Source: Candidatus Doudnabacteria bacterium
GTDB lineage: Bacteria > Patescibacteriota > Doudnabacteria > UBA920
Direction: 5' to 3'
Assembly: GCA_963837465.1 (NCBI GenBank)
Contig: CAWINB010000004.1
Coordinates: forward strand, 458,853 to 522,852
Length of the DNA stretch: 64,000 nucleotides
A program made the position numbers and the translations under genes. Of this stretch, positions 28,509 through 48,301 are shown in pieces. Below the pieces are notes generated by a model. That model made no database searches and was not told the origin of the DNA. It saw only the letters and a list, made by a program, of their open reading frames with translations. Positions within the stretch are counted from its first letter, which is position 1; every line of letters begins with the position of its first letter.

Positions 28509-28647
28509 GGTTTTTGTTTCTAAAGCTTAATTTTGTTATATTATACACCTTTTTGGTTATAAATAAAACAAAAAAGTTTTCCAGTGCCAGATGGCCAAGC
28601 AACTTGCCTCTGGAAAACTTTTTATTTTTTATATCAGATTAGTTTTC

Positions 28648-29385
28648 TTAAACAGGTTTTTTATATTGGTGGTTAAACTTTAGACCCCTTTGCAGGCCAG
28701 TAAGAGTTATTGTCTTAGGTACATAGTGAACAGCTACTTCTTCCCAACCAATCTTAAGTTGTTCAAAGAACCGCATTACTTCCTCAAAGCAATTTTTATA
28801 TTTGCCACTGACGACCCAAGCATGCGGAACTTGCGCCCAATCTATTACATTATATATGGTACTGGATTTTGGATGGTTAAAGCTATGTCGTATTTCTTGC
28901 AACTCTGAAATTAAAGCCGAATAACCTTTATTATTAATTAAATCCGGCTTATTGATTATTTTCGTTATTATGTGCCTAAGTTTTTGACTTAATTCTTTTT
29001 TTTCAAGTTGGGCTAATATGGCTGGAGCGCTATTTGCGTATACATATCTTAAAATATTTAAGCTATAGTATTCAAATGTCAGATATGTATGTATTACCAA
29101 GTTAAACCCTTCTTTATAAGAAGCAGTATTTAACTCCGCGTCAGCTATTAACCGAGAATTAGTTTTTGCATTTGGTTCCGTTTGTAAAATCTTTTGTTCA
29201 ATATCTTTAAGTTTTTCATAGGCATCGTTTGCAAAGTTAAAATGCAATGTCCAGTGTATTGGCCAACCAAAATTTATTACCCCCATTTGATGGTGCAAAA
29301 CAGTCTGGTTAATCATAACCGTAGACCCTTCTTTATGGGGATGAGCTAGGTTTTGGTCGCTTTCGGATTTAATTTGTTTACCCAT
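28648..29385 (-). CDS. hypothetical protein with C-terminal Rx4H (EIRHSFNH) HEPN-like motif
   Basis: 245 aa, predicted all-alpha. Last gene of the AT-rich minus-strand block, 25 nt downstream of the NTase gene. Confidence 0.4.
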   Translation of the reverse strand: MGKQIKSESDQNLAHPHKEGSTVMINQTVLHHQMGVINFGWPIHWTLHFNFANDAYEKLKDIEQKILQTEPNAKTNSRLIADAELNTASYKEGFNLVIHTYLTFEYYSLNILRYVYANSAPAILAQLEKKELSQKLRHIITKIINKPDLINNKGYSALISELQEIRHSFNHPKSSTIYNVIDWAQVPHAWVVSGKYKNCFEEVMRFFEQLKIGWEEVAVHYVPKTITLTGLQRGLKFNHQYKKPV

Positions 29386-29410
29386 AGTTTTTAGCTACTT
29401 AATAATTCAT

Positions 29411-30184
29411 TTACCAAATTGCTTGCTTCCAAGAGCCATTTAAGGTATCTACGGCCGCCTGCTGAATTGTCTTTTTTTCATCTGCCGTCAGTTCATCTGA
29501 GACAATATTACCGGAATTAGATGGGTCAACCATAGTTTTATCAACAAAATCATTTGCCAGATAATTCATAACAGTAACGAAATTAGCAGAGGGGCTACCG
29601 CCTAATAATGATTTACCCTTTAATGCTTCAATAACAGACAATTCTAAGTAAAATGAGGGAAAACTTAAGTCCCTAAGCTTTCTCCAAATTTTAATTGCTT
29701 TTATGTCCAATATACGGCCTGAATTTTTTACATAACTTATGTGTTGGTCAATATTTGTTTTTGTCCAACTTTGAGCTTTTCTTTTCCAAACCGAATGGTC
29801 ATATCCCAAAATATGATGCTTTACACCCGCTACAATATCTACTTTTAATCCGCCATGATTAATCCCCAAAGAAACATTTTGCTCTCTAGCAGTATAACCT
29901 GCGCCGTTGAGCCTATTTCGAAGTGTTTTGTATACGTTTTCAAGTGTGTTGTAATCACTAACTGAGGGGTCGAGAGAAATAAATAGATCTATATCAGTTG
30001 TGCCAGTGATTCCTGTTCCTTTAGCTAGGGATCCAGACGGTTTTATGGTATATGAAAAGCCATTTGCCCAGGCAAAAATATGAGGGTTTAGTTCATTTAT
30101 TTTATCCTGAACCAAATAAGTAATGTTGGGTGTATGCATCACCACTATTTGCCGAATATAATTATCGCTCATAGAATTTTTCAT
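29411..30184 (-). CDS. polymerase-beta-superfamily nucleotidyltransferase (minimal SMODS/CD-NTase-like core + helical C-terminal domain)
   Basis: PSGSLAKGTGITGTTDIDLFISL (hG[GS]-x11-DhD) and a downstream third acidic strand GGLKVDIVAGV. Overlaps the upstream gene by 23 nt. Confidence 0.6.
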   Translation of the reverse strand: MKNSMSDNYIRQIVVMHTPNITYLVQDKINELNPHIFAWANGFSYTIKPSGSLAKGTGITGTTDIDLFISLDPSVSDYNTLENVYKTLRNRLNGAGYTAREQNVSLGINHGGLKVDIVAGVKHHILGYDHSVWKRKAQSWTKTNIDQHISYVKNSGRILDIKAIKIWRKLRDLSFPSFYLELSVIEALKGKSLLGGSPSANFVTVMNYLANDFVDKTMVDPSNSGNIVSDELTADEKKTIQQAAVDTLNGSWKQAIW

Positions 30185-30680
30185 AACTCGTAGTTACCAT
30201 TGAGGTTACTACATCATTAAGTAATCTTCCCCTAAAATTTGTAACTGCTGTATGCCTTTTCCCATCTAATTTTTTCATTTGATCCGTAGGAATTTTATCT
30301 TTGTCATACGGAGCATAAACAACTAATGCGCACTTGTCTGGTTTGATATCCAAAATTTTATCAATCTGCTCTGTCCAGTCATGCCAAAATACCAGATACA
30401 CTGAAGCTTTTTCCGCTCTTCCGAGATCATCATCTCCAGTAATAAGTATTATATTTTTTTCTTTGAATAACCCCGAATCACAGAGCAAGCCCTGTAAGCT
30501 GGTACTGTTATCCCCCTTAGCAAAAATAGCAATTTTTCTTTTTGCTAAACCATTCCCTAACCTATAAAGAGCGGGAGAAATACCCCTAACCCATAAAACA
30601 ATTCCCCAAATAATCACACCCATAAGAACAATTGTGTCGGCAACGCCTACTATAGCAATAATTATTATTAAAATATTCAT
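30162..30680 (-). CDS. membrane-anchored protein: ~30-residue hydrophobic N-terminus (1-2 TM) + C-terminal Rossmann/flavodoxin-like alpha/beta domain (TIR/SLOG-like guess)
   Basis: MNILIIIIAIVGVADTIVLMGVIIWGIVLWV then alternating beta-strands KIAIFAKGD, NIILITGDDD, VYLVFWHDWTEQ, CALVVYAP. Confidence 0.5.
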   Translation of the reverse strand: MNILIIIIAIVGVADTIVLMGVIIWGIVLWVRGISPALYRLGNGLAKRKIAIFAKGDNSTSLQGLLCDSGLFKEKNIILITGDDDLGRAEKASVYLVFWHDWTEQIDKILDIKPDKCALVVYAPYDKDKIPTDQMKKLDGKRHTAVTNFRGRLLNDVVTSMVTTSYEKFYER

Positions 30681-30962
30681 ATTTTTGAATTAACTTTCTT
30701 TAAAATTAAAACCAGCAACCTATAAATGAAGTTGCTGGTCTTGATTTCCAAAATAAGATTTGGCGAAGCTAAAAACTGCAGTCGTTATAGCTGTAGATTG
30801 GCAGTTTTGTTCTGCTGATTTTGTTTTTGCGCGAATGTAGACATAACCACTATTTTGTGGTTGCCTCTTATGACTAGCCATATTAATTTTGACTTTAATT
30901 TTTTGGTTTGCATTTTAACTAAGTGCATTTTAGCAAAAATTAGCAGACTCGTCAAGCGAGTG

Positions 30963-31601
30963 CTAATAAGTAATATTTCCACCGCTTGCCTTGATTAGCT
31001 GAAGTAGCCTTGTTAATTCACTATGTTCAGGCGGGGAAACTTTTATATCGGTCATTACTTCGTCAACCATAGTTTTCATATCCAGAAGTCTTATTTCGCA
31101 ACCAGTTAGGTTTTGCTTAAACAAACTATAATTTTCCCATTGACCTCTTAATTCCTGGTCAAATTTTACGCAGATAACATAAAAAGTAAAGCAATCATCG
31201 CCTGTCTGTTTCTTAACTTCTTGCTTTAAAGCTTCTGACCAGTCTTTTAAAGCCACCTCCCTAAATATTTTTTTGGTTTTAACGAAATCTGCTTCAATTT
31301 CTTTAATACAATTTTTTATATTTAACCCCGTATTCCAACTTTTACAACTTGCTACGCAAACTCTTGGCAGATTGTTTTGTTTAGGTTGAGGGTGTACAGC
31401 AATAATATCAATATCAGAAGATACGGCAAATGCCGAACCTTTTTTATTTGGCCTATATCTTACATTGTGCTGAGTAAAGTAGCCTTTGTATCTAAAATAC
31501 TCTTCGCCTAATTGTTCTAAAATATCGTTGACCATAAAAAGCAATAATTTGATTTGAGATGCGACGCTCCTCTCCAACCTTGTTGGCTTGGTTGAGGGCA
31601 A
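30963..31601 (-). CDS. hypothetical protein (KKGSAFAVSSDIDIIAV acidic strand; possible degenerate NTase or nuclease fold)
   Basis: 212-aa ORF in the same AT-rich block. No confident family. Confidence 0.45.
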   Translation of the reverse strand: MPSTKPTRLERSVASQIKLLLFMVNDILEQLGEEYFRYKGYFTQHNVRYRPNKKGSAFAVSSDIDIIAVHPQPKQNNLPRVCVASCKSWNTGLNIKNCIKEIEADFVKTKKIFREVALKDWSEALKQEVKKQTGDDCFTFYVICVKFDQELRGQWENYSLFKQNLTGCEIRLLDMKTMVDEVMTDIKVSPPEHSELTRLLQLIKASGGNITY

Positions 31602-31631
31602 AATTACTACCTAATTATTTTGGAATTTTTA

Positions 31632-31862
31632 TTACCAAACCCAACCTGCAAATTGGTTAGGCTGATGGGTTATTGCCATATTGCAAAGGCTGACGCCGTT
31701 TATAAAATTATAGTTTGGATTACTTGTCTCGTTGACTTTCGCATTTGATTGGTTGCATTCAATATACTCATTAAATTTTTGATTTTCGATGAAGCTGTAT
31801 GCAAACCAGGCTACCACTAGTAGTAACATAATTTTGAACCAGTTATTTTTGACCCAGGTCAT
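31632..31862 (-). CDS. small N-terminal-TM protein
   Basis: 76 aa, WFKIMLLLVVAWFAYSFI helix, 31 nt upstream of the 212-aa gene. Confidence 0.35.
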   Translation of the reverse strand: MTWVKNNWFKIMLLLVVAWFAYSFIENQKFNEYIECNQSNAKVNETSNPNYNFINGVSLCNMAITHQPNQFAGWVW

Positions 31863-32155
31863 ATTTTGTTCGTTAATGTTCTTGGTGCCGGAGCGGATAA
31901 CACAAAGCCCGCCGCGGAATTCAGCGAACGGCGTGCGGCGTTAGACCGCGCAGATAACGCTACTGTGGATCAGATCGCTACAATTGGAAAACTTTTACAG
32001 AAACCTACACAGAGTTATACATCAGCGAAGTCAGAAGAGAAAAAACGTTTTCTTGTGAAGTCGTTGGTTGGAAAACTTTCTTATGACGGAAAAAAGATAA
32101 CAATCCATTGGTTAAAACAGTATGAAGTGATCGCGAAAAGACCTAAGAATGACCT

Positions 32156-32229
32156 TGGTCGGGCTGCTGGGAATCGAACCCAGTCTATCTGCTCCCAAAG
32201 CAGACGTACTACCGGTATACTACAGCCCG
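32156..32229 (-). tRNA. tRNA-Pro (anticodon TGG), CCA encoded
   Basis: Reverse complement cgggctg-ta-gtat-accggta-gtac-g-tctgc-tttggga-gcaga-taga-ctggg-ttcgatt-cccag-cagcccg-a-cca. Perfect cloverleaf, G37. Confidence 0.9.
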
Positions 32230-32465: not shown

Positions 32466-35400
32466 ATGGTAAAAAGACCGGGCTTATTCGGAAAGGGATG
32501 GAGTTTTTTTCCGGCGTTGTTTTTTGGCGGCCTTGTTGTCCTTTCGTCGCTGCTGTTTTTGCCCAAAGCGGCCTATGCCTCCGGAGACCGCTATTGGGTT
32601 GGGGGAACTGGAAATTGGTCCGACACTTCCCATTGGTCGGCAATCAGCGGCGGATCGGGCGGCGCGAGCGTGCCGGACAACTCGACCAACTGTTATTTTG
32701 ACGCAAGCTCATTTTCCGGCAGCGGCCAAACCGTAACTTTGGATGAAAGCGGCGGGTGCGATACTATGGATTGGACCGGAGCGACAAACTCCCCGACATT
32801 CACGATGAGCAACCCGCTGACCATCGGCGGGTCTTTCACGCTGACAAGCGGCATGACCGTCAACGGTCTTTCCCCAGGCATCACTTTCAACTCCCTGGGC
32901 ACGAACACAATTACTTTGGCCGGACACGCTTTGCCACTTATCAATGTTGAGATGATTTTTGCGGGCGGGGGTACCTGGACGCTCCAGGATGCCTGGAATA
33001 TGCCCAGCCTTCAGGTATATATGGCACAAGGTACACTCAATACCAATAACCAAAATTTTCTGGTTAGGCAGATATACGATAATACCAATAACGATGGCGG
33101 CGGCCTTGATGACCCCGGTAACGTTACGGTGAACTTCGGTTCTTCAAACGTTACCATAATTGATACTCTGGCTCTGGCCTTAGACAGTACGACCTTGATA
33201 GGCACTTCATCGAACATAACCATAGCCCCCGATGTTGATAATACGATATTTTTTGTCAACGGTACCGCTCAATTTAACAGTTTTCACGCGGAGGCGGGAA
33301 CCCCATCCGAACCCACCAGTAATAGACTGCAAACCTTTGGAACAATCTTTGCCGATACCCTGACCCTTGACCCCATCGGAACCTCCACCTGGCCGGTGGG
33401 GGCATTTGAGACGGATGACTTAGTTTCAAATGGCAATTCAGGGAACCTGGTCAACATCAGCGGAAACTTTCAAGCTGAGGCTCAAATATCCGCAGATTAT
33501 TTGGATATTACCGATTCCACCTGCTTGGGCGTTACACCCTGCTATGCCGGGACGCATAGTGTCGATGGGGGCGGGAATGCCAACTGGATTTTTACAGCTC
33601 CCCCTCCTCCGGACGTAATCTCCGTTACCGGACAAAACCCCGCTTTGGCAACCACCAGCACGCCCTCAATAACCATTAATGGTTCGGGGTTCGCCCCAAC
33701 GCCTACGGTTACTGTGGGCGGCACAGCCGCGACCAATGTTACATATGTTGACGCGGGCACCCTTACTGCCACAGCTCCGGCAAAAGGGCTTGGTAGTTAT
33801 GATGTGGTGGTAACCAACCCTGACACCAGCACCGCGACTTGTGCCGGTTGTATGCTTTACGTCAGCGCGCCCGGCGTGCCCACTGATGCAACCTCGACCC
33901 CCGGTAACGACCAAGCCTCCCTGTCATGGTCTGCTCCTGTTTCAGATGGCGGCTCTCCTCTTATAGACTATCTGGTGCAGTACAAACTAAGCGCTTCATC
34001 AACTTTTGACAGTACCTTTGACACTAACTCAACGAGCACAATGACAATTGTCACCGGCCTGATGAACGGATCAAGCTACGACTTTGAGGTTGTGGCGGAA
34101 AACGCCGCTGGCAGTTCAACTCCCTCTAGCATTGTTTCGGCTTCGCTCGCGGCAACGGTTCCGGACCCACCCACTTCGGTTTCCGCCACGGCCGGCAACG
34201 GGCAGGCGGTTGTATCATTCTCGGCTCCGGACAATGACGGTGGCTCTCCGATTACTGCGTATACTGTAACCAGTAATCCGGGCAACATTACGGCAACAGG
34301 TTCTTCCAGTCCCATTACCATAACCGGCCTGACTATTGGCGTTGGTTATACTTTTACTGTTACAGCCGGCAACACGTTGGGGGACTCCGTTTCCTCGAGT
34401 CCTTCAGGCACCGTGACCCCGTTTGTACCCTACGCGGCTTCGGCGCTTTTGGGCCAGGTTGATGGCAGCGGTAACCCGCTGTGGACAGACTCTGGCTCCA
34501 ATAACTCTTCTGGCTCGGTTAACCTGCAGGGATTCCATAACCCTTCTGATGTAACTGTTGACTCTGTGAACCATCGCCTGTTTGTTTCCGATACGGGCAA
34601 CAAGCGAGTTTTAGTATTTAGTCTTGATACAACCGACAACATTGCCTCAACCACTGCTTTGTACGCGCTGGGAAGCGGCATTAGCAGCTTTGAGCCGGAA
34701 TATCTTTCCTATGACCCAATAAACCAGCGTTTGTTTGTCGGCGATGACGGCAATCAGACAGTTGAGGTATTTAACGTCGCCACCTCCACCATCAGCGACA
34801 GCGAGAGTCCGGATAATACCCTGAACTATCTGACTGATAATGGGGCTGTTCCTGCTGGTTTAGCTTACGATTCCGTAAACCAGCGTTTGTTTGTCGGCGA
34901 TGACGGCAATCAGACAGTTGAGGTATTTAACGTCGCCACCTCCACCATCAGCGACAGCGAGAGTCCGGATAATACCCTGGACTACCTCGCTGATAGTGGG
35001 GCTGCTCCTATTGGCCTGGCTTACGATTCCGTAAACCAGCGTTTGTTTGTCGGCGATTATAATAATGAGACAGTCTACGCTTTTAACGTCGCCACCTCCA
35101 CTATCAGCAACAGCGAGAGTCCGGACAATACCCTGGACTACCTCGCTGATAGTGGGGCTGCTCCTATTGGCCTGGCTTACGATTCCGTAAACCAGCGTTT
35201 GTTTGTCGCTGATAATAATAATGACACAACCTGGGCTTTTAACACCTCCACCTCCACCATAAGCGACAGCGAAAGTCCTGAAATTTACTTACCAAACGGC
35301 GCAAGAGGAGCGGCTACTCAAAGCAGCTTTCTTGAAAACGCAGGTCTTGCTTATGACAGCGGGAATTACCATCTGTTTTTGGTTGACCAGAATGCCAACC

Positions 35401-36416
35401 GGGTCATGCAGTTTAACCTCATCAAACTTACAACCGGCAGTCTTGCTTCGGCAACTGTAGGTTCAGCCTATTCCCAAACTTTAACCACTGCTTTCAGCCA
35501 AGGCATAGTTGCCTTCTCCCTTTATGCCAGTTCTACTCTGCCTTCCGGTTTGGTCTTAAATTCTTCCACGGGTGTTATTTCCGGCACTCCCGCATCCCCG
35601 GGAACGTATTCTTTTGTGGTTGAAGCCGATGATACTATTGGTGGAAACGGAAATTTCTTTGACCGCCAGCCATACAGCATGACCGTTTCCGCGCCCAGCC
35701 TCGGAGGAGCAGGCGGCGGTGGAGGTGGCGGCGGTGTATCTTACGGCAGCGGGAACTACACCCCTCCCGCCAACCAACAGCCAGCCTCCAGCCTTCCAAC
35801 TTCCTCTCCCGCGTCATCCCTGCCTTTTATGCCTTCAGCCCCTGTGTCTGCTGCCCCAAACCTAAAACTCATCAATAACAAAGGCACCTTTTACTTCATT
35901 GACAACGGCATTAGCTATGGTATTGCCAACCCGGGTATCCTAAACAGTTACGGCTTAACCTTTAAGGACGCGGTTTCTCCCACAGCGCAAGACTTGTCCC
36001 TGCCACAGGGCGGTCTTCTCACCCCTGCCGACGGTTCCCTGGTTAAAACTTTAAAAGATCCCACAGTTTATTTTATCAGTAACCAAACCAGGTATGGTTT
36101 TACTTCAGCCAAAGTCTTTTTGGCTTTAGGCTTTAAGTTCTCCTCTGCCCTGGTGGTCACTACTCCCGAACTCCAGGCCTTGGCCGCAGGCCCTGTTATT
36201 AAAGATGCTACAGCCGCCCACCTGCCCGGCACGGACATAAATTATAAAGGCACCATCTACTACATAGGCAGAGACTATTTGAGACACCCCTACCTGTCTT
36301 TAGCTGTTTACAACTCCTGGAATATTGCCAATAATTTTAGTGCCGTTGTCCCTGCCAACGCTGCAGATTTAAAGCTGGGAGCGGGAAGCGCCGTAAGCCA
36401 GAGAACTTTAAACTAA
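32466..36416 (+). CDS. giant secreted surface protein (1316 aa): signal peptide, beta-helix-like Gly/Thr/Asn repeats, IPT/TIG-like and FN3 domains, NHL/YVTN-type beta-propeller repeats, Ig-like domain, Gly/Pro/Ser linker, C-terminal triple ~55-aa repeat module
   Basis: Signal MVKRPGLFGKGWSFFPALFFGGLVVLSSLLFLPKAAYA. FN3 (ASLSWSAPVSDGGSPLIDYLVQY). Repeated LAYDSVNQRLFVGDDGNQTVEVFNV units. Three C-terminal repeats (GTFYFIDNGISYGI..., TVYFISNQTRYGFTSAKVFLALGF..., GTIYYIGRDYLRHPYLSLAVYNSW...). Confidence 0.8.
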   Translation: MVKRPGLFGKGWSFFPALFFGGLVVLSSLLFLPKAAYASGDRYWVGGTGNWSDTSHWSAISGGSGGASVPDNSTNCYFDASSFSGSGQTVTLDESGGCDTMDWTGATNSPTFTMSNPLTIGGSFTLTSGMTVNGLSPGITFNSLGTNTITLAGHALPLINVEMIFAGGGTWTLQDAWNMPSLQVYMAQGTLNTNNQNFLVRQIYDNTNNDGGGLDDPGNVTVNFGSSNVTIIDTLALALDSTTLIGTSSNITIAPDVDNTIFFVNGTAQFNSFHAEAGTPSEPTSNRLQTFGTIFADTLTLDPIGTSTWPVGAFETDDLVSNGNSGNLVNISGNFQAEAQISADYLDITDSTCLGVTPCYAGTHSVDGGGNANWIFTAPPPPDVISVTGQNPALATTSTPSITINGSGFAPTPTVTVGGTAATNVTYVDAGTLTATAPAKGLGSYDVVVTNPDTSTATCAGCMLYVSAPGVPTDATSTPGNDQASLSWSAPVSDGGSPLIDYLVQYKLSASSTFDSTFDTNSTSTMTIVTGLMNGSSYDFEVVAENAAGSSTPSSIVSASLAATVPDPPTSVSATAGNGQAVVSFSAPDNDGGSPITAYTVTSNPGNITATGSSSPITITGLTIGVGYTFTVTAGNTLGDSVSSSPSGTVTPFVPYAASALLGQVDGSGNPLWTDSGSNNSSGSVNLQGFHNPSDVTVDSVNHRLFVSDTGNKRVLVFSLDTTDNIASTTALYALGSGISSFEPEYLSYDPINQRLFVGDDGNQTVEVFNVATSTISDSESPDNTLNYLTDNGAVPAGLAYDSVNQRLFVGDDGNQTVEVFNVATSTISDSESPDNTLDYLADSGAAPIGLAYDSVNQRLFVGDYNNETVYAFNVATSTISNSESPDNTLDYLADSGAAPIGLAYDSVNQRLFVADNNNDTTWAFNTSTSTISDSESPEIYLPNGARGAATQSSFLENAGLAYDSGNYHLFLVDQNANRVMQFNLIKLTTGSLASATVGSAYSQTLTTAFSQGIVAFSLYASSTLPSGLVLNSSTGVISGTPASPGTYSFVVEADDTIGGNGNFFDRQPYSMTVSAPSLGGAGGGGGGGGVSYGSGNYTPPANQQPASSLPTSSPASSLPFMPSAPVSAAPNLKLINNKGTFYFIDNGISYGIANPGILNSYGLTFKDAVSPTAQDLSLPQGGLLTPADGSLVKTLKDPTVYFISNQTRYGFTSAKVFLALGFKFSSALVVTTPELQALAAGPVIKDATAAHLPGTDINYKGTIYYIGRDYLRHPYLSLAVYNSWNIANNFSAVVPANAADLKLGAGSAVSQRTLN
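34724..35300 (+). repeat. near-identical 156-bp (52-aa) tandem repeats, 3 full + 1 partial copy, inside the giant surface-protein gene
   Basis: Period 156 bp verified (copies start 34724, 34880, 35036, 35192). Copies differ at only a few positions. Confidence 0.85.
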
Positions 36417-36433
36417 AAATCCGATAATTTTTT

Positions 36434-36462
36434 TGACAAATATCAATAGTTGTCTTATAATA
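36434..36462 (+). promoter_or_regulatory. consensus sigma70 promoter TTGACA-17-TATAAT, ~720 nt upstream of the second giant surface-protein gene
   Basis: ttgaca (36434-36439), 17-nt spacer, tataat (36457-36462): perfect match to consensus. Confidence 0.6.
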
Positions 36463-37019
36463 AGTAAAATATTTGATTAATCTCTTAATTACCTAAGAAT
36501 GATAGCAATCCGACCAGGTTTTTGATAGAAGTCGGAAAAAAGCCATAAGCTAAATATAGCCTTATTTAAGACTAAATTTATGACTTTTTTCTGGCTTTTT
36601 GCGTGGTCAGCGCATTTAAGCTATTTTGGGCATAAGGTTGTAACAAAGGACAATCGCAGCCGTCTGCCTATATGTACAACAAAAGTGAGATTTTAGGGTT
36701 TTGGCTTAAAGCCTAATCAGCCTAATCCTTGTAGAAACAAAACTAAAACCTCATTACGCAAGGTTTGTTGTATTTTAACATCAGTTATTGAGTTTGTTTT
36801 AAAGCCAGTTAACCGCGGTTTCAATTAATTTGTTTACCTGGGTCGATCGGTTAGCGTATAAGCTTTAAAACGGCTTTTCAATAATCACTTACTTTTTAAC
36901 CAAAGCTTTGGTGATCTCTAGAGCTCCAAAACTTTCAAGCTAAAAGGGGAGTGTCCCGACATCGCTATTTTTTATTGGCAGATATCGGGAGAAACAATTA
37001 ATTAAATTTTTTAGGTTTA

Positions 37020-37119
37020 CCCCACACCAATTGCCCTGAATTTGGTTTATTATTACCAAAAGGCGTTGGAGCAACAATTGCAAATCAAAAATTACTGATT
37101 TAAGGCAATTGGTGTGGGG
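37020..37119 (+). promoter_or_regulatory. long 5'-leader hairpin: perfect 16-bp stem (ccccacaccaattgcc / ggcaattggtgtgggg) with 68-nt loop, ~65 nt upstream of the start codon at 37185
   Basis: Inverted repeat read directly. Lies in the untranslated region between the consensus promoter and the giant gene. Confidence 0.55.
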
Positions 37120-37184
37120 CAAGTTGATTATCTCAATTGAATAATTAACCTGATACAAACCTAAAAATGGAGTATTATTAAAAA

Positions 37185-40100
37185 ATGCAAAATTCTGTCG
37201 CAAAGAAATTCTTTGCTGTAGGATCCGCGGTAGTTATGACTTTGGCCATGGTGGCTCCGTTAGCGGCTCACGCTGCTGCCGACCCCGTTGGCACCAATGT
37301 CGTTGACTCATCCGGTACCGTTTGGATGGTTATGCCAGACGGCACCCGCCGCGCCTACACCTCAGCCGGCGCCTTTCTCTCTTACGGCTTCAACTCTTGG
37401 AGCCAAGTAGTTCCGGCCAGCGCTTCCGACTTAGCTTTGCCCACTGGATCCTTTATTCCTCCTCAGGATGGCTCCATTATCTGCTCTAACAAGGGCAGCG
37501 ACACCGGCACTTGCTACGAAATCAGCGGCGGCCAAAAGTTTGGCTTTACCTCGGCCGCGGTATTTACCGGCCTTGGTTTTAGCTTCTCCAATTCCTTACC
37601 CGGTGATGTTTCCTTTTTAGCTATGGGCAATATGTTGCTCAACAACAGCTCCATGGCTCACTTGCCCGGTACCTTAGTTAATAACAACGGTACCGTACAA
37701 TTAGTAGGAACCAGCGGTGTTTTGGGTATTCCGGACTTAGCCACCTTTAATTCCTGGGGCTATTCCTTTACCAAAGTTGTCCCGGCCAATGCCGCGGATA
37801 AAACCATGACCCAAACCGGCGTTATGGCTGCCCGCACCCCGGGCCAGCTTAGCCCGATTGCCACAACCGGAAGCACCGGCACAGGCACCGGCACCGGTAG
37901 CACGGTAATCAGCGGTAACGTATCCGTCAGCTTGTCATCCGACACCCCGGCGGCCGGTACCGTAGTTGCCAACAGCAACGGCACTTCTCCCGGACAAACC
38001 GGAGCTGACATTGCCAACTTTACCTTTAGCGGTACAGGCACTGTCACCCAGGTTGTAGTTAACAGGATTGGTGTTTCCGCCGACAACAGCTTAAGCAATG
38101 TTTACCTTTACCAGGGTAACAACCGCATTACCTCCGCCGGAAGCTTCAGCAACGGCCAGGTAACCTTTAGCAATTCCAACGGATTGTTCACTGTCAGCGG
38201 TTCTACCGAAGTTTCGGTCAGAGTTGACATTGCCGCTGGCGCCACCTCAGGCCAAACCCTGGGCGCGCAATTGGCTTCTTACACTGTCGCCAACGGCACC
38301 CCGATGACCGCCAGCATTTCCGGCAATCTGTTCCAGATTGCTTCGGTCAACAACTTGGCTACTGCCCAGTTAAGCGGTACTAGCGTTAGCAATAGTGGTA
38401 TTATCTCTTCCGGTGCTTCAAACAACACCCCGGGAACCCTTAATGCCGGTACCAGCAATGCCATTTTGTGGCAAGCTCCTATTAGCATCGGCCAGCGCAC
38501 CGTGCTGTTAAAGCACGTCGCGTTTACCCAGATCGGTTCCATTCAAAGCAGCGCCATTACCAACCTCCAGCTGTATGTTGACGGCAACCCGGTAGGAACT
38601 ACCGGCACCTTAACCACAGTTGGCGGCCAAAACCAGGTAGTGTTTGATTTCAGCGGCAACCCGGTTAGTTTGTCTACCGGCAGCCACACGCTTTCTTTGG
38701 AAGGCAATGTCGTAGGTGGAACTTCCTTTACCTTTGAATTCAGCCTCCAGACTGCGGCTGATATCGTTCTTTACGATACCAACTACAACGTCAACATTCC
38801 GCTGACTTACAGCGGCGGCGGTACTATCTTCCAGATAGCTCCGGGCTTGACCACCATTAACAGCGGCACGGTTTCGGTTCAATCCGACCCGACCTTTACC
38901 GCTACGCAGTTTGTGACCAATTCATCCCAGGTTCTTTTGGGACAGTGGGACTTAACTGCTTACGGTGAAAATGTTAATGTCAACCAATTACAGGTTTCAT
39001 TGCATTATACCGGCACTTTGGTTGCCGGCGTAGACGGCTTTAATAATTTGAGCATCTATGTAAACGGTGGCACCGTCGGTTCTTCGCAAGGCGCTTTAGC
39101 TACTACTGGCGGAGCTTGTCCTGCAGGAACCAACCCGACGTGTGCATATAGCTTTGGTACAACCAACCTCTTTACCATCCAGGCCGGACAAACTGTTACG
39201 GTTCAGGTAAAGGGCGACTCTGTTGTCAGCGGCAGTGATATTACCGCGGTACAAGCCAGCTTGGTTGTCCCGGCCAATACCATCCAGGGCCAGACTTCTT
39301 ACGCCTTGACCCCGTCTTCAACCCAGACTTACTCTGCCAACACCTTAACTACCGGCAGCAGCGTTGGTACCTTAGCCGAAAACACCGGTTACACCAACCA
39401 AACCATTGGCTCTAACCAGAACAACCAAGAAATTGGTTCTTACACTGTTCAGGCAAGCAGCATTGATGGTGTCAGGGTTAACCAGCTAACCGTTGGCTTA
39501 GGCGGTTCGTTTAACAACGGCAGCGCGACCACCGGTTTGACCAGCTTGTACTTGTCTGTCTCCTACCCGGGCGGCAGCGCGACTACAACTCCGGTCAATC
39601 CTTCGGCCAGCAATACGTTTACGTTAAACAACGTAACTATTCCTGCCAACCAAACGGCTACCGTAAACGTTATGGCTAACGTCAGCAACGCCACCGGTAC
39701 CGTAATTACCACTATGTCCGGCAGCGGCCAGGGTTTAAGCAGCAACCAATCGGTTTCTCTTAGCTCCGTCCAGGGCCAGACTATCACTGTGGGCAACGGC
39801 ACAATCAACGCGCCGACTTTGCAGACTTCTTCCCCGGTAGCTTCCTTTGTTATTGGAGGCACGCAAAACCAGCCAGCCGCTACATTTAACTTTGTGGCAG
39901 GCAGCGGTGGCGCGACCATTCAGGAATTGGACTTCTTAGTTGCCACTTCTTCGGGCGCTACTACCATTCCGGTTACAGCGGTAACCGTAAACGGCGTAAC
40001 TTCCCCGATTGTGGGCGTCACCTCCTCCGTTACAGGTTTGAGCATTGCTGTTCCGACCAGCTACGGTGGTATTAACGTTCCTGTCACTGTGAACTACCAG

Positions 40101-40724
40101 GCGGTAGGAAACAATGGTATTCCGTCCAACCAGATCTTCACCCTGAATTTGACTCGCGTGAAGTACCTCTCGGGCTCCAATACTATGTACCTCTACCCGA
40201 ACGTGGCTTCCAACAGCCAGGATTTGGTAGCTTCCGCTCCGACCGTTACTTTGGCGGGCGTAAACAACCTGCTTACAAGCGGTACGGTTATAATTGGCCA
40301 GGTTACAGTTTCAGCTAACTCTGCCGGTAACATTGTCTTAGACAACTTACCGATCACAGTTTCTGCCAACAATGCTACGATTACTTCCAGCACTGTATTG
40401 GCGGTTGATTCCGCTACCAGCCAACAGGCCGGCACTCTTACCGGTTTTGCTGTTAACGCCAACAGCTCGGCTACGGGTACCATTGCCTTCTCAACCGACA
40501 ACAATATTTCCGCGGGTACTTCCAAGACCTACAATATTGAAGTCGTTGTTAACGCGATTGGCAACTCCACCAACGGTACGCCTTCCATCTCCCTCGGTCT
40601 TGGCAACGCCAGCCTGTTTACATTTAATGATGTCAACGGCGGCGTAAACAACATCGCGGGCGCAAAGGCCGGCAACGTCTACCTCAGCAACTACCCGACT
40701 ACTTCGGTTTCTATCCAGAACTAG
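37185..40724 (+). CDS. giant secreted surface / S-layer-like protein (1179 aa): signal peptide, N-terminal triple ~55-aa repeat module homologous to the C-terminus of the preceding protein, then a long Thr/Ser/Gly/Asn/Val-rich beta-rich region
   Basis: Signal MQNSVAKKFFAVGSAVVMTLAMVAPLAAHAA. Repeats FGFTSAAVFTGLGFSFSNSL...MAHLPGT and FNSWGYSFTKVVPANAADKT match those of the upstream protein. Confidence 0.8.
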   Translation: MQNSVAKKFFAVGSAVVMTLAMVAPLAAHAAADPVGTNVVDSSGTVWMVMPDGTRRAYTSAGAFLSYGFNSWSQVVPASASDLALPTGSFIPPQDGSIICSNKGSDTGTCYEISGGQKFGFTSAAVFTGLGFSFSNSLPGDVSFLAMGNMLLNNSSMAHLPGTLVNNNGTVQLVGTSGVLGIPDLATFNSWGYSFTKVVPANAADKTMTQTGVMAARTPGQLSPIATTGSTGTGTGTGSTVISGNVSVSLSSDTPAAGTVVANSNGTSPGQTGADIANFTFSGTGTVTQVVVNRIGVSADNSLSNVYLYQGNNRITSAGSFSNGQVTFSNSNGLFTVSGSTEVSVRVDIAAGATSGQTLGAQLASYTVANGTPMTASISGNLFQIASVNNLATAQLSGTSVSNSGIISSGASNNTPGTLNAGTSNAILWQAPISIGQRTVLLKHVAFTQIGSIQSSAITNLQLYVDGNPVGTTGTLTTVGGQNQVVFDFSGNPVSLSTGSHTLSLEGNVVGGTSFTFEFSLQTAADIVLYDTNYNVNIPLTYSGGGTIFQIAPGLTTINSGTVSVQSDPTFTATQFVTNSSQVLLGQWDLTAYGENVNVNQLQVSLHYTGTLVAGVDGFNNLSIYVNGGTVGSSQGALATTGGACPAGTNPTCAYSFGTTNLFTIQAGQTVTVQVKGDSVVSGSDITAVQASLVVPANTIQGQTSYALTPSSTQTYSANTLTTGSSVGTLAENTGYTNQTIGSNQNNQEIGSYTVQASSIDGVRVNQLTVGLGGSFNNGSATTGLTSLYLSVSYPGGSATTTPVNPSASNTFTLNNVTIPANQTATVNVMANVSNATGTVITTMSGSGQGLSSNQSVSLSSVQGQTITVGNGTINAPTLQTSSPVASFVIGGTQNQPAATFNFVAGSGGATIQELDFLVATSSGATTIPVTAVTVNGVTSPIVGVTSSVTGLSIAVPTSYGGINVPVTVNYQAVGNNGIPSNQIFTLNLTRVKYLSGSNTMYLYPNVASNSQDLVASAPTVTLAGVNNLLTSGTVIIGQVTVSANSAGNIVLDNLPITVSANNATITSSTVLAVDSATSQQAGTLTGFAVNANSSATGTIAFSTDNNISAGTSKTYNIEVVVNAIGNSTNGTPSISLGLGNASLFTFNDVNGGVNNIAGAKAGNVYLSNYPTTSVSIQN

Positions 40725-40833: not shown

Positions 40834-42009
40834 TTGGCAAAACCCCCGTTTCATTTTGAGGCGGGGGTTTTGGTATGCCCTGAAACTCTTTGTGTTATAA
40901 TTAATTTAATTTATTCAATTAACCATCCCGCGCGAACAAACACGAACAAAACAGTGAATAAAAACTCTCAAAATAAAAGGAGATTTTTTAAAACTTCCCG
41001 ATTTTTATTTATTTATTGCGCCATAGCTTTTGTGGCCGGGGCCGGGGCGGCGTCTTTATTTTGGCGCGCGGGCAATAACCGGCTTATTGAGCAGTTGTCC
41101 GCCCAGGTCAGGCCGCTGCGGCAAAAAAATAACCCTTATACTTACATCAACCCTTTGCTGGGATATGAAGTCCCCGGTGACGTAAAAGAATTTGACGAGT
41201 ACAAACCTTTAAAAAACGATATCCAAAAAGCCGCGCCAATTAAAAGCCCGCAGGTCCAGAGCTATTCGGTTTATTTTCGGGATTTGACCCTGGGAAGATG
41301 GGCGGGAATTAACGAAGATGCCGCGTACGCGCCGGCCAGTATGATGAAGGTCGCTATTATGATTGCCTATTTTAAGGAGGCCGAAGACGGTTTATCCGTA
41401 CTTGGACAAACTCTGGTTTATTCTTCGTCCACGGCTGATCAAATTAATGGCGTACCCTTTGAAACCCCTTCCGACCTAAAAGTAGGACAAAAGTACACGG
41501 TGGAGCAGTTAATAGAAGCTATGATAATATCTTCCGATAACGGGGCCAAAAATATCCTGCTGGATAATATTAACCAGCAGGATTTGGATGAAATTTATAG
41601 CGACTTGGGCCTGCCCAACCCGGACAACAGCGCCGATTATACCATTTCCGCCAAGCAGTATACCGTGCTTCTGCGGGTTTTGTACAACGCCACTTATTTA
41701 AGCCGCGCGGATTCCGAAAAAGCCCTGCAAATTATGTCGCGGGCCGAGTACAGCCAGGGCCTGGTGGCCGGGGCGCCAAAAGGGACAATGGTGGCGCAAA
41801 AATTCGGGGAGAATGTGGACGCCTCAAACCCCCAGGCGCCGGAAATTTCACTGTCCAACTGCGGCATTGTTTACCATCCAACTTATCCTTATATTTTATG
41901 CGTTATGACCAAGGGTACTGACGCGGAATCTTTGCAAAAAACAATCGCCGCCATTTCCCAAACCGTTTGGCGTGATGTCAGTGACTATGCCGCCACGGAT
42001 AATTATTAG
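40834..42009 (+). CDS. membrane-anchored serine hydrolase, class A beta-lactamase-like (SxxK, SDN motifs). The true start is probably downstream (~40950), since the first codons of the ORF-track start overlap the terminator.
   Basis: TM SRFLFIYCAIAFVAGAGAASLFW, then PASMMKVAIM (SxxK), ISSDNGAKN (SDN), AQKFGE (KTG-like). Confidence 0.6.
   Translation: MAKPPFHFEAGVLVCPETLCVIINLIYSINHPARTNTNKTVNKNSQNKRRFFKTSRFLFIYCAIAFVAGAGAASLFWRAGNNRLIEQLSAQVRPLRQKNNPYTYINPLLGYEVPGDVKEFDEYKPLKNDIQKAAPIKSPQVQSYSVYFRDLTLGRWAGINEDAAYAPASMMKVAIMIAYFKEAEDGLSVLGQTLVYSSSTADQINGVPFETPSDLKVGQKYTVEQLIEAMIISSDNGAKNILLDNINQQDLDEIYSDLGLPNPDNSADYTISAKQYTVLLRVLYNATYLSRADSEKALQIMSRAEYSQGLVAGAPKGTMVAQKFGENVDASNPQAPEISLSNCGIVYHPTYPYILCVMTKGTDAESLQKTIAAISQTVWRDVSDYAATDNY
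40841..40870 (+). terminator. rho-independent terminator after the second giant gene
   Basis: aacccccgtttcattttgaggcgggggtt with flanking A/T runs. Confidence 0.65.
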
Positions 42010-42077: not shown

Positions 42078-44285
42078 ATGCAATCAAAATTCGTCAAAGG
42101 TTTGTTTTGTTTTTTGGTTATTGCCGCTTTATTAACGCCGTTTTGGGTCTTTAAAGAACTATTGTTCCCGTTCATTACCTCCAAAGCTTTTTACCTCCGG
42201 ATTCTGGTGGAGATTACTTTGCCGCTGTACGTTTATTTGCTGATGAAGTATCCGCAATACCGGCCTTCCTGGAAAAACCCACTGACAATTTCCATAACCG
42301 CGTTTTTATTTCTGAATTTTATTGCCGCCATTTTTGGAGTTAACCCGCTCCGCGGCATTTGGGGCAACTTTGAACGCATGGGCGGCGTATTTTATCTGGC
42401 CCATCTGACCATGCTGTATTTTTATGTTCTGCTTTTGGGCCAAATGGGGGGCAGGTATATGCGCTGGTTTTTGGATGCGGTAATTTGGTCCGCCGCTCTT
42501 ATTACCTTAGACGGCATTTTAGTCCAGTTGACCCATAATCACTTTTTGCTCAGTGACCCTTCTTATCCGCGTGTTTCCGGCACCTTTGGCAACCCGATTT
42601 TTATTGCCAGCTACCTGGTCATCCCCATGTTTTTAAGCTGTTATTATATGGTTTTGGAAGACAGGCGCTGGCTGAAAATTGTTTATGGGATTGTCGCTTT
42701 TTGCGAACTTTATCTTATTGTATTAAGCCAAACCCGCGGCGCGGTGGTGGGGGTTGCGGCCGCTTTGTTTGTAGGCGGCGTGACTTATGTTTTTTTGACC
42801 AAGCAAAAGCAGGTCCGGAAATGGGGTATCATAGCGGTTGTAATTTTTATCGCCTTAACGGCCACGGCGTTTACCCAGCATGCCAAGTTCAAAAAAGGCT
42901 CCTTACCTTACCGCGTGCTTAACCTAAAAGACTCCAACACCGAATCCAGGTTAATCCAGTGGGGCGTGGCCTTAAAAGGCTACACGCATTATCCGATTTT
43001 AGGAGTGGGTCCTGAAGATTATTATTTCCTTTCCAACAAGTACTACAATCCGGCCATTTACCAATACGACCCCAGCTGGTTTGATAAGCCCCACAATTAC
43101 CTTATAGAAGTTCTGGTGACCACGGGCATTGTGGGTTTTGGGGCTTACGCCGCGATCTTAGGATTTTTTATCTGGATTTTGTACCGCGCTTACAAAAAAG
43201 ACCTGCTTTCTTTGATGGAATTTTGTCTGCTTCTCAGCGGTTTTTTGGCTTACGAATTCCAGAATCTGACCGTGTTCGATACCATTTCCGCCAGCCTTAT
43301 GTTTTTCGCTTTTTTAGGTTTCGGCGCGTTTTTATGGCAGGAATCCATGGAAGTAAAAAAGCCCAATTTAAAGGGTTTGGATGCGTTTTTTATCGCCATC
43401 TCAACCGGTTTGACCGCGGTTGTCATGATTTATGTAATCTATGTCTGCAATGTTTATGGCATTCGCATCGCCAAGGATATTAATTACGGTTACGCCTACA
43501 GCACCGTAGACCCGCAAATCGCTTACAATTATTTTCAGACGGCCGGTAGCCTGCCCTTTGACTTTGACCCCATACAATTCTCCTCCAAATACGCGGACTT
43601 TGCCAGCGCCCTGGCCGCCAATCCCGGCGGCCAAAGCCCTCAGTTTGTAAACCAGGTCATGCAGGACGCCATAACCGCGCAGCAGGACGCCATTAATGAA
43701 ATATCCAATGATCCCACAGCCTGGCAGGAGCTTTCCAATTTATATTTAAATGAATCCATTGTAAACAAAACTTCTCCTGATCCAAAAGCGCTCGAGGCAG
43801 CCGACGAAGCTATCAGTTTAGCTCCCAGACGGCCGGAACCGTTGCTGCAAATGGCCAGGGTGGAATTGATACAAAATAATCTTACCGGCGCCGAGCAAAC
43901 ACTGCTGAAGTTATTAAGTTACATTCCGGAAGAACAGCAGGCCAGCTTTGAGCTGGCGCTGGTCTATAATTATTCCGAACAAACCGCCAAAGCGGTGCCC
44001 TATGCCGAGCAGGCTTTGGCAGAGGGATTTACGCCGACTCAGGCGGCTCAGATTGACTGGCTGGCCCAGTATTATACCCAGAAACAGGACTGGTCGGATG
44101 CCGAACGGATTTTCCAAATGGCCGTAAAAATAGACCCCGCCAACTTTAACGATGACTTCAATCTGGCCCAGGTTTATTACGAGCTCGGGCAAAAGTCCCA
44201 GGCTGTCAGTTTGGCGCAGCAGGTAGCGCGGACGGATCCTTCACAAGCCGCTTACGCTCAAGGGCTGATTGCTTCGTTTAAGTAA
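42078..44285 (+). CDS. O-antigen ligase/polymerase-like polytopic membrane protein with C-terminal TPR repeats (candidate oligosaccharyl-transferase/ligase)
   Basis: About 12 TM helices with a Wzy_C-like core (GNFERMGGVFYLAHLTMLYF, SQTRGAVVGVAAALF). The C-terminal ~250 aa are helical repeats (ELALVYNY..., LAQVYYELGQKSQAVSLAQQ). Confidence 0.6.
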   Translation: MQSKFVKGLFCFLVIAALLTPFWVFKELLFPFITSKAFYLRILVEITLPLYVYLLMKYPQYRPSWKNPLTISITAFLFLNFIAAIFGVNPLRGIWGNFERMGGVFYLAHLTMLYFYVLLLGQMGGRYMRWFLDAVIWSAALITLDGILVQLTHNHFLLSDPSYPRVSGTFGNPIFIASYLVIPMFLSCYYMVLEDRRWLKIVYGIVAFCELYLIVLSQTRGAVVGVAAALFVGGVTYVFLTKQKQVRKWGIIAVVIFIALTATAFTQHAKFKKGSLPYRVLNLKDSNTESRLIQWGVALKGYTHYPILGVGPEDYYFLSNKYYNPAIYQYDPSWFDKPHNYLIEVLVTTGIVGFGAYAAILGFFIWILYRAYKKDLLSLMEFCLLLSGFLAYEFQNLTVFDTISASLMFFAFLGFGAFLWQESMEVKKPNLKGLDAFFIAISTGLTAVVMIYVIYVCNVYGIRIAKDINYGYAYSTVDPQIAYNYFQTAGSLPFDFDPIQFSSKYADFASALAANPGGQSPQFVNQVMQDAITAQQDAINEISNDPTAWQELSNLYLNESIVNKTSPDPKALEAADEAISLAPRRPEPLLQMARVELIQNNLTGAEQTLLKLLSYIPEEQQASFELALVYNYSEQTAKAVPYAEQALAEGFTPTQAAQIDWLAQYYTQKQDWSDAERIFQMAVKIDPANFNDDFNLAQVYYELGQKSQAVSLAQQVARTDPSQAAYAQGLIASFK

Positions 44286-44353: not shown

Positions 44354-45463
44354 TCAGGCAGTTGGCTTTAAAACTTGCCGGTAAACCGCGGCAGTTTGCT
44401 CCAGCATTTTTGTTTGGGTAAACATTTTTGATCTTTCCAGGGCTTTGGCGGATAAAGCTGCTGCAGCAGCGTTGCTGTTTGCAATCTCGGTAATCGCCCG
44501 GGCCAGTTGAGCCGGGTCCTCCGGGTCAATCACAATTGCCGCGTCTGCCACAGCTTCGGGGTTGCCGCCGACGTTGGTTGTAATTAGGGGCAAACCCGCC
44601 TGCATGGCCTCTAAAAGGGTATAAGGAAGGCCTTCTTTGCGTGAAGCCAGTACAAAAATATCAAAGGCTTTAATGGCGGCAGGCGTGTCCGAGCGGTAGC
44701 CCAAAAGTTTAACTTTATCCTTCAGACCCAGGTCCGAAATTTGTTGTTCCAGAGCTTTTCTTTCCCTGCCTTCGCCGATTATCGCGCATAAAACTTTGCT
44801 TTTGGTCGCGTCATCCAGCAGGGCAATGGCGCTTATTAAAACATCCAGACCTTTGGTTTTATAAAAATTGGCCACCGAGCCGATTATGATTTTATCGTCC
44901 GGCAAATTCAGGGCCGTTCGCGCCGAATTACGGGGCAAGAATTCTATTTTTGGAATGCCGTTATAAACGGCGCCCATTTTATTTTTCGCGATCAGCCTAT
45001 GGCGCAAAGCGGATTTTTTGTCGTTTTGGGAAACGCAGATTATGTAATTGCGAAAAAAACCCGCGAATTTTTCCAGGGCCAGGTAGAATGTTTTTGCCGG
45101 CCAGGGCAGCGGTTCGTTAAAAATAAACCCGTGGGCGGTAAAAATTATTTTGGCCTTTACAAAAGGCTTGGCCAGGCTGCCGAGAAAACCGGCCTTGCTG
45201 GAGTTTAAATGAATAATGTCCGGTTTCTCCTCCCGGGCCAGTTTTATTATTTCAAACAGGGCCAGAACATCGTAAAATGGATGGATATTGCGTTTTAAGC
45301 AGCGCAACTCAATACAGCTAACGCCCGCTTTCCTGGCATCGTAAAAAAGCTTCACCCCTTCATTGCCGGCCGCTATGGTGCCGTTAAAATTTTTAGCCAA
45401 ATCCAGGACGTATTTCTGCGCCCCCCCGCCATCTGCCTGGGTTATAATATAGAGAATTTTCAT
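44354..45463 (-). CDS. glycosyltransferase family 4 (GT-B)
   Basis: MKILYIITQADGGGAQKYV and the EGLPYTLLEAMQAGLPLITTNVGGNPE motif. Confidence 0.85.
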   Translation of the reverse strand: MKILYIITQADGGGAQKYVLDLAKNFNGTIAAGNEGVKLFYDARKAGVSCIELRCLKRNIHPFYDVLALFEIIKLAREEKPDIIHLNSSKAGFLGSLAKPFVKAKIIFTAHGFIFNEPLPWPAKTFYLALEKFAGFFRNYIICVSQNDKKSALRHRLIAKNKMGAVYNGIPKIEFLPRNSARTALNLPDDKIIIGSVANFYKTKGLDVLISAIALLDDATKSKVLCAIIGEGRERKALEQQISDLGLKDKVKLLGYRSDTPAAIKAFDIFVLASRKEGLPYTLLEAMQAGLPLITTNVGGNPEAVADAAIVIDPEDPAQLARAITEIANSNAAAAALSAKALERSKMFTQTKMLEQTAAVYRQVLKPTA

Positions 45464-45560
45464 TGCTGTTATTATAGGGCAAAAATGGTTGATTTAAAAG
45501 GAGTTTTATGATAAATTATAAGTATTTGGAGCTTGGGCTAGAAATGATATAATTTTACTT

Positions 45561-46634: not shown

Positions 46635-46689
46635 TAGACCAGGTTGTTTTAAATCGGCGCCCGGTTAAAAAAACCCAAGAAGCATAAAT

Positions 46690-47983: not shown

Positions 47984-48007
47984 GTTTTTGATACCATATG
48001 ACCTTTA

Positions 48008-48036
48008 TTGACACCTAAAAACCCTTTTGCTATTAT
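48008..48036 (+). promoter_or_regulatory. sigma70-like promoter TTGACA-17-TATTAT upstream of a small HTH gene and wzx
   Basis: ttgaca 48008-48013, 17-nt spacer, tattat 48031-48036. RBS AAAGGGA before the ATG at 48054. Confidence 0.55.
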
Positions 48037-48053
48037 GGGATAAAGGGATTTTT

Positions 48054-48300: not shown

Positions 48301-48301
48301 C

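Follow-up and report, generated by a model that had tools for sequence, protein, structure and literature searches.

A three-repeat module with the EccB-repeat fold at opposite termini of two neighbouring Candidatus Doudnabacteria proteins, and its probable role as a cell-wall anchor

Patescibacteria make up a large share of bacterial diversity, and their envelopes are almost uncharacterised. The 64,000-nucleotide stretch of a Candidatus Doudnabacteria genome analysed here (the window) carries two neighbouring genes on the plus strand whose large predicted surface proteins, P1 and P2, share a module of about 185 amino acids (aa), placed at the C-terminus of the first and the N-terminus of the second. 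What is this module, and does it fix each protein to the cell wall or the two proteins to each other? An initial annotation of the locus proposed a common anchoring or co-assembly domain, acting by attachment to the wall or S-layer or by mutual binding. We find that the module is an unannotated deployment of the repeat fold of the EccB proteins as a three-repeat terminal unit, one that probably serves as an anchor. With an anchor module that can be recognised, the displayed surface proteome of Patescibacteria (adhesins, proteases and a probable S-layer protein, all relevant to episymbiotic attachment) could be read directly from genomes.

The shared module and its fold

The two genes and the main parts of their products are as follows, with R1 to R3 denoting the three repeats.

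32466-36416, plus strand: P1, 1316 aa; signal peptide aa 1-38 (AYA/S, by inspection), N-terminal region, two FN3 domains, NHL propeller, He_PIG Ig domain, Gly/Pro/Ser linker and C-terminal module
35703-35858, plus strand: P1 linker, aa 1080-1131, poly-Gly then Pro/Ser/Ala-rich, between He_PIG and the module
35859-36413, plus strand: P1 C-terminal module, aa 1132-1316; R1 35859-36035, R2 36036-36230, R3 36231-36413
37185-40724, plus strand: P2, 1179 aa; signal peptide aa 1-30 (AHA/A, by inspection), N-terminal module, Thr/Gly linker and acidic body of ~950 aa
37290-37844, plus strand: P2 N-terminal module, aa 36-220; R1 37290-37472, R2 37473-37670, R3 37671-37844
37845-37919, plus strand: P2 linker, aa 221-245, containing TTGSTGTGTGTGS, between the module and the body

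Both open reading frames (ORFs) have the coordinates and lengths that the initial annotation gave them and both are large, although at 1.2-1.3 thousand residues they are not the giant proteins it described. Minus-strand ORFs within P1 and P2 were taken as shadows of the long ORFs. When the two proteins are compared by compositionally adjusted BLASTP, P1 aa 1134-1314 and P2 aa 38-218 match with 36% identity and 55% positives (expectation value, E, 3e-23), and there is no further similarity outside the module. The module consists of three repeats of 58-66 aa each, which in P1 run to the final residue (R1 aa 1132-1190, R2 1191-1255 and R3 1256-1316) and in P2 stand right behind the signal peptide (R1 aa 36-96, R2 97-162 and R3 163-220). 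The repeats are related to one another: P2-R1 is matched by P1-R3 (BLASTP, E 2e-7), and hidden Markov models of single repeat positions, made from the proteins of other species, recover the other two positions in P1 and P2 with E of 1e-6 to 1e-15. A homologous triple repeat at these two termini is thus confirmed, and the motifs first cited for it are found in both proteins. An alignment of 32 module sequences (A1) has conserved positions that are aromatic, acidic or amide (S38, Y39, F41, D54, F99, H131, W163, N174 and D177), and P2-R2 also holds a conserved Cys100/Cys110 pair and an AHxPG motif. The P1 module is basic (isoelectric point, pI, 9.2) and the P2 module acidic (pI 4.7). A merely compositional similarity is excluded, as the E of 3e-23 persists after compositional adjustment; likewise, the similarity is not one of low complexity only, a caveat entered with the initial annotation, the composition of the module not being of low complexity and its AlphaFold2 model being well ordered. 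A repeat profile run over all six frames finds the module in no other reading frame of the window.

No Pfam-A or NCBIfam model covers the module, and neither collection gives an SLH, CWB2, LysM, SH3b/GW, CW_binding_1 or PG_binding_1 match within it, in agreement with the initial annotation, which could not assign it to SLH, LysM or GW; a match to a well-known anchoring family, the other caveat entered with it, was not found in either collection. The SLH profile has no match at E <= 1 in P1, P2 or the 32 modules, and the same holds for CWB2 (PF04122), LysM, SH3b/GW, CW_binding_1 and PG_binding_1. CBD_PlyG gives a chance-level match (E 0.049) in 2/32 modules.

The fold, in contrast to these family searches, points to a single group of proteins. 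The structure prediction proposed with the initial annotation gave a confident AlphaFold2 model of the module from alignment A1 (m6652800d4a04; predicted local distance difference test, pLDDT, 95; predicted template-modelling score, pTM, 0.88), and a single repeat was modelled at pLDDT 94.9. In each repeat three strands are predicted to be followed by a pair of short helices and a fourth, short strand. The repeats of EccB1 are ~55 aa long with a 4-stranded sheet and two helices (PMC4769845); the predicted secondary structure fits this description, and the repeat is on that ground counted with the EccB repeat domains. With the whole module as Foldseek query, the top 11 matches in the PDB are all EccB (EccB1, EccB3 and EccB5; E 3e-4 to 5e-2), and with a single repeat the top 10 are again all EccB (template-modelling score, TM, 0.53-0.64; root-mean-square deviation, rmsd, 3.0-4.1 A over 56-69 columns; probability up to 1.0). 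EccB proteins are the only solved structures recovered, by fold and by profile alike. EccB1 is the best match of the single-repeat profile (A2) in the PDB sequences (E 0.02), and the EccB family model PF05108 is matched by one A1 member (E 7.2e-5), which the output does not name and which is most likely the P1 module row (window:35847-36413). Whole P1 matches PF05108 at aa 1184-1251 with 15.1 bits (E 0.0095), the gathering score being 27 bits, and the P2 module has no match to it; a relative with 16 repeats, P0069 (repeat-profile E 7e-96), reaches 39.3 bits, above the gathering score. Both modules as direct sequence queries against PDB chains return nothing, and the whole-module profile returns designed propellers only, at chance level. 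On the Foldseek ranks, the description of EccB1, the A2 profile and the PF05108 matches, the repeat is predicted to be a remote homologue of the EccB repeat domain, a kinship that the initial annotation overlooked. P1 and P2 as EccB proteins proper were considered and rejected, as they are without a membrane anchor, a central core, the 2+2 arrangement of repeats and an ESX gene context.

Repeats at the same position in different proteins are 40-50% identical, and those at different positions 24-29%, whether within or between proteins. Because same-position identity exceeds cross-position identity, the triplication appears to be old, with repeats that have specialised and are inherited as one unit. 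The high pTM of the model fits a rigid, compact assembly better than beads on a string.

Small actinophage proteins of 102-115 aa also share the repeat fold in the BFVD database: A0A1I9SA71 of Rhodococcus phage Weasels2 (TM 0.68, rmsd 3.5 A) and A0A345MGB2 of Streptomyces phage LukeCage (rmsd 2.0 A over 59 columns).

Deployment of the module and exchange of anchors

A database search with the P2 module gives 68 relatives, and those that are named are from Patescibacteria; a look-up of the complete P2 sequence for identical entries gives no record. The search of other Candidate Phyla Radiation (CPR) proteomes suggested in the initial annotation shows the module to be widespread: an exhaustive profile search of 1.84 billion representatives, from clusters at 50% identity, recovers 3,641 clusters at E <= 1e-3, including 1,807 at E <= 1e-10. 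Of the 137 top representatives newly returned, 103 carry three repeats, no more and no fewer, and the triplet is N-terminal in 50, at the extreme C-terminus in 42 and internal in few. Placement at opposite termini, true of P1 and P2 as first reported, is therefore not peculiar to this pair but a general trait of a portable module. No account of the module, or of an S-layer protein of Patescibacteria, was found in the literature.

Scanning of species-representative genomes gives 79 loci, nearly all labelled as metagenome-assembled genomes (MAGs) of Candidatus Doudnabacteria, Saccharibacteria or Patescibacteria. The scan used two peptide patterns only, drawn from a closer alignment of 8 sequences as the 32-sequence one is too divergent; the loci are accordingly skewed to P2-type modules, and the at least 2-4 module loci per genome seen in several MAGs are a lower bound. 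The bearer proteins are 350-2,091 aa long, and the module either occupies about aa 35-220 or ends within a few residues of the stop codon. The passengers include FN3, TIG, Ig-like, FG-GAP, beta-helix, subtilase, trypsin-like protease, laminin-G, PKD, PEGA and SpoIID domains, and neighbouring module-bearing genes recur in varied combinations (L002, L004, L043, L056 and L073).

Arrays beyond the triplet also occur. P0069 has 16 copies in 1,423 aa; P0075, an Actinomycetota protein, has eight repeat copies behind a SpoIID/LytB peptidoglycan-processing domain; and in P0080 12 copies stand at the N-terminus of an RHS-repeat toxin-like protein.

P1 is an example of a composite passenger. Pfam finds fn3 in two stretches (E 9.5e-22), NHL repeats (1.9e-12) and He_PIG (4.1e-13), which bears out the FN3, NHL-propeller and Ig-like parts of the initial annotation; the IPT/TIG-like part it also listed is not detected at E <= 1. 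The propeller contains a conspicuous repeat found by Tandem Repeats Finder.

34720-35278, plus strand: tandem repeat within P1, 156 nt, 3.6 copies, 90-92% identical, encoding near-identical NHL blades

The near-identity of these blades points to recent expansion. P1 has no orthologue in related loci, where its FN3 region alone finds matches, and a protein identical to it (P0130) lies on a public contig. Given the lack of an orthologue and the 90-92% identical tandem repeat, P1 is read as a variable, lately remodelled, lineage-specific passenger.

The P2 body behaves differently. It is rich in Thr, Ser, Gly, Val and Asn, close to the Thr/Ser/Gly/Asn-rich array first described, with a pI of 4.2, 27% Thr+Ser and 1.2% K+R; it has two Cys and four Met in 949 residues, His is almost absent, and no Pfam family matches it. 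As a query (aa 231-1179) it has 232 homologues at E <= 1e-5, of which the best 120 are counted here, nearly all of them ~1,000-1,400 aa long. The triple repeat described above is at the N-terminus in 60 of the 120 and a divergent version in ~16 more, 12 of which reach whole-sequence E <= 0.001 to the repeat profile; hhalign relates the divergent and the main version with a probability of 93.8% (E 1.8e-7), collinear across 159 columns. At the same N-terminal place 27 of the 120 have PG_binding_1 (PF01471) and one has SLH (PF00395), and in none of the 120 does the module occur together with either. Alignment of five of the anchor-swapped proteins shows that their first 140-230 residues are replaced and that homology to the body begins just past the P2 linker; it reaches the C-terminus in four of the five, the exception being P0294, which has SLH and aligns only as far as P2 aa 605. 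The P2 bodies thus form a large Patescibacteria family (e.g. P0266, P0271, P0280, P0292 and P0294) with interchangeable N-terminal anchors. Exchange of the module for two classical wall-binding domains at one position is what would be expected of functionally equivalent anchors.

Full-length counterparts of P2 are present in ~30 related loci, one per related genome. An acidic, Thr/Ser-rich composition that is poor in Cys and Met is common among S-layer proteins, and cryo-electron microscopy of ultra-small groundwater CPR cells reportedly showed an S-layer. From its composition, its single counterpart per genome, its probable wall anchor, its candidate promoter and structured leader, and the Wzy_C gene and glycan cluster that follow it (see below), P2 is a probable S-layer-like protein, and it is probably O-glycosylated.

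Readings of the role of the module

We consider it probable that the module is a non-covalent cell-wall anchor in Doudnabacteria and related Patescibacteria, with peptidoglycan or a wall-linked polysaccharide as its most likely ligand. The strongest functional clue comes from those homologues of the P2 body that have PG_binding_1 or SLH in place of the module. The module is also terminal, either behind the signal peptide or at the very C-terminus, with a flexible linker between it and the body; it is carried by thousands of proteins whose extracellular passengers are unrelated; and in Actinomycetota the same repeat, in eight copies, is fused to a SpoIID/LytB peptidoglycan enzyme. In addition P1 and P2 show no other visible means of retention, their sequences having no LPXTG motif, C-terminal transmembrane segment or lipobox.

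Of the two roles offered by the initial annotation, anchoring is thus favoured by position, passengers, anchor exchange and the SpoIID fusion, and mutual binding of P1 and P2 is unsupported. A conserved P1-P2 pairing was rejected because adjacency is not kept in related loci, where P1 has no orthologue and its body has only FN3 matches. Charge complementarity, with P1 basic and P2 acidic, was likewise rejected as a family trait by a survey of pI, in which all 50 N-terminal modules and 30/42 of the C-terminal ones lie at or below 7.5.

A broader form of protein-protein assembly, in which the module docks passengers on an S-layer lattice or a membrane protein, or oligomerises, and does not bind the wall, is unlikely but is the best placed of the alternatives. 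The closest solved relatives are EccB chains of a periplasmic assembly (7NPS and 7NP7), the module is compact and always a triplet, and in this pair the two modules are oppositely charged. That opposition is not family-wide, however, nor is the adjacency of the two genes conserved, and an assembly domain would account poorly for a P2 family that swaps it for PG_binding_1 and SLH or for fusion of the repeat to a peptidoglycan enzyme. It is improbable that the module is instead an adhesin head for the wall of a host or prey bacterium and not for that of its bearer. Patescibacteria are widely regarded as episymbionts, the fold and repeat occur also in Actinomycetota and actinophage proteins (Weasels2, TM 0.68, and LukeCage), and P0080 has a multi-repeat version on an RHS toxin-like protein. 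One would, however, look for a binding head at the far end of a protein anchored by other means, of which P1 and P2 have none of the three kinds named above; moreover, the domains exchanged for the module are self-wall anchors, and a conserved S-layer-like protein bears it. That the module has no specific ligand and acts as a passive stalk or spacer, or that its similarity is compositional, is very improbable, for although Ser, Thr and Gly are abundant in the two proteins, neither the E of 3e-23 after compositional adjustment with its conserved aromatic, acidic or amide positions, nor the pLDDT 95 model, nor strict terminal placement with anchor exchange would be expected of it.

Four points weigh against the wall-anchor interpretation and the S-layer assignment that goes with it. 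The EccB-repeat fold can join protein-protein assemblies, as EccB chains in the ESX-5 structures 7NPS and 7NP7 are listed as belonging to a periplasmic assembly. In sequence, the link to EccB is remote and partly transitive, since the proteins of the window fall under the PF05108 gathering score. How the three repeats pack, and whether they form a binding groove, is at most a prediction of the model. Lastly, the S-layer identity of P2 draws on its composition, conservation and context only.

If the module is a wall anchor, its bearers would be exported by Sec via a cleavable signal peptide, the module, at either terminus, would dock onto the wall, and the flexible Gly/Thr/Pro/Ser linker would let the passenger project outward. 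P2 would be the conserved S-layer-like member, with a strong promoter and a structured leader of its own, and P1 a lineage-specific passenger (FN3, NHL propeller and Ig) held by the same anchor at its C-terminus. Their opposite placement would follow from the anchor being modular, like the triplets of SLH and CWB2, with no sign of interaction between P1 and P2. On the wider proposal, that the surface proteome of Doudnabacteria/Patescibacteria relies chiefly on the EccB-type triple repeat for non-covalent attachment to the wall, and that this extends to the S-layer family of the phylum with its interchangeable anchors (module, PG_binding_1 and SLH), our judgement is evenly balanced. If true, the module would join SLH and CWB2 as a third three-repeat anchor of independent origin and would give a first functional handle on the ligand of the periplasmic repeats of mycobacterial EccB, making testable the long-standing suggestion that these bind the cell wall. 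As the module is small, predicted to be well folded and easy to express, binding tests are feasible.

Leader, gene neighbourhood and known systems

The region between P1 and P2 contains two features of the P2 leader.

36433-36461, plus strand: candidate promoter, TTGACA-17-TATAAT (12/12 sigma-70 consensus), 17 nt past the P1 stop codon
36886-36953, plus strand: structured RNA in the P2 leader; hairpin 36907-36930 with the invariant box GATCTCTAGAGC at its tip, and an outer helix pairing 36886-36894 with 36944-36953

The first is, by its consensus match, a candidate strong promoter for P2 with a leader of ~720 nt. The second lies within 36841-37016, in the 768-nt leader upstream of P2, and was analysed with RNAalifold in an alignment of nine rows, the window and 8 orthologous upstream regions (A5). 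In these, 92% of cells are paired and 11/18 pairs have compensatory changes; 0/500 shuffles equal the observed values, and slid controls give 44-57%. Upstream of the hairpin are an invariant CAATAATCA and a near-invariant GGTCGATC, the latter in 6/9 rows. The element precedes P2-type genes in at least 8-11 other species, and no Rfam family matches it at 36886-36953.

Downstream of the conserved leader block and ahead of the P2 ribosome-binding site there is a perfect 16-bp inverted repeat, ccccacaccaattgcc at 37020-37035 and ggcaattggtgtgggg at 37104-37119. It is absent from the orthologous upstream regions, Rfam gives only a sub-threshold RAGATH-13 match on the minus strand (E 0.35), and 37020-37119 may be a small inserted palindromic element.

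The neighbours of P1 and P2 are genes for glycan and envelope functions, a tRNA gene and a CBASS (cyclic oligonucleotide-based antiphage signalling system), and there is no ESX context in the window. Downstream of P2 are the following, with the other loci that share the arrangement listed last.

42078-44285, plus strand: Wzy_C membrane protein, O-antigen-ligase-like with C-terminal tetratricopeptide repeats (TPRs); Pfam Wzy_C, 3.7e-21
44354-62829, strand not specified: surface-glycan cluster with glycosyltransferases (GT4, GT1-like and GT2s), acyltransferase_3, Wzx-like flippase, methyltransferase, NDP-sugar epimerases/dehydratases and nucleotidyltransferase (Pfam)
L006-L008, L010, L014-L016, L019, L020, L022-L024, L026-L028, L032, L036, L042 and L076: loci with a Wzy_C/TPR gene after the P2-type gene

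The Wzy_C gene heads a glycan cluster of ~20 kb (42078-62829), and in ~19 other loci its counterpart is within ~0.1-1.5 kb downstream of the P2-type gene. Its product is a candidate O-oligosaccharyltransferase or wall-polymer ligase, and the cluster may serve to glycosylate P2 or to synthesise the putative wall-polymer ligand of the module.

Between the P2 and Wzy_C genes, 40834-42009 encodes a Beta-lactamase2/S11-like serine hydrolase with an N-terminal membrane segment. Its counterpart in L011 and L042 is upstream and on the opposite strand, and its position is thus not conserved. On the other side of P1, a two-gene CBASS-like system (29411-30680, minus strand) consists of an oligonucleotide cyclase (PADLOC PDLC00803, E 5e-77) overlapping an effector with one transmembrane segment (PDLC00664, E 7.5e-60). 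It lies in a stretch at ~28000-32000 of 35-36% GC, as against 42-52% in most other 2-kb windows (an exception being 16-18 kb, at 38%), adjoined by a tRNA-Pro (32156-32229, minus strand). This stretch is probably an acquired island.

Several known systems can be set beside the one described here. One is PlyCB (PDB 4F87), the cell-wall-binding subunit of the streptococcal phage lysin PlyC, to whose fold that of the module may be similar. PG_binding_1 takes the N-terminal place of the module in the P2-body homologues counted above, in a mutually exclusive manner, and differs in being a single domain of ~57 aa from an unrelated family rather than a triplet. In Firmicutes, S-layer glycosylation or wall-polymer loci adjoin S-layer genes, and the succession of P2 and glycan cluster in the window resembles this. 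In C. difficile, where a wall-polymer locus adjoins the S-layer genes, three tandem, non-interchangeable CWB2 repeats are found at either terminus of the S-layer protein and of ~28 other surface proteins (PMC4973711). The likeness extends to the glycan cluster that follows P2; CWB2 repeats, however, are ~100 aa long and unrelated in sequence, bind the anionic polymer PSII, and have no Pfam match here. SLH triplets are three non-identical repeats of ~55 aa that act as a unit, at either terminus, in the non-covalent anchoring of S-layer and wall proteins (PMC4973711). The module is alike in design only, with its three tandem repeats at the N- or C-terminus, and SLH replaces it in one P2-body homologue; the two have no sequence match, SLH is absent among the fold matches of either model, and what SLH binds is a secondary wall polysaccharide that is pyruvylated. 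The repeats R1-R4 of EccB (PF05108; PDB 4KK7, 3X3M, 5CYU, 6SGY and 7NPS) are by contrast the same domain, ~55 aa with a small beta-sheet and two helices, sharing with the module the signature G-x-[RK]-x-x-[FIV]-x-[SDN]-x-x-x-[FL]-x-[SA]-x-G-[FYL] and a location outside the membrane, in the zone of the wall. EccB, however, is a membrane-anchored part of the type VII (ESX) secretion machine, encoded in ESX loci together with EccC, EccD and MycP, in which a central beta-sheet core is flanked by four repeats (2+2), whereas the module consists of three tandem repeats at a terminus of Sec-secreted proteins with unrelated passengers.

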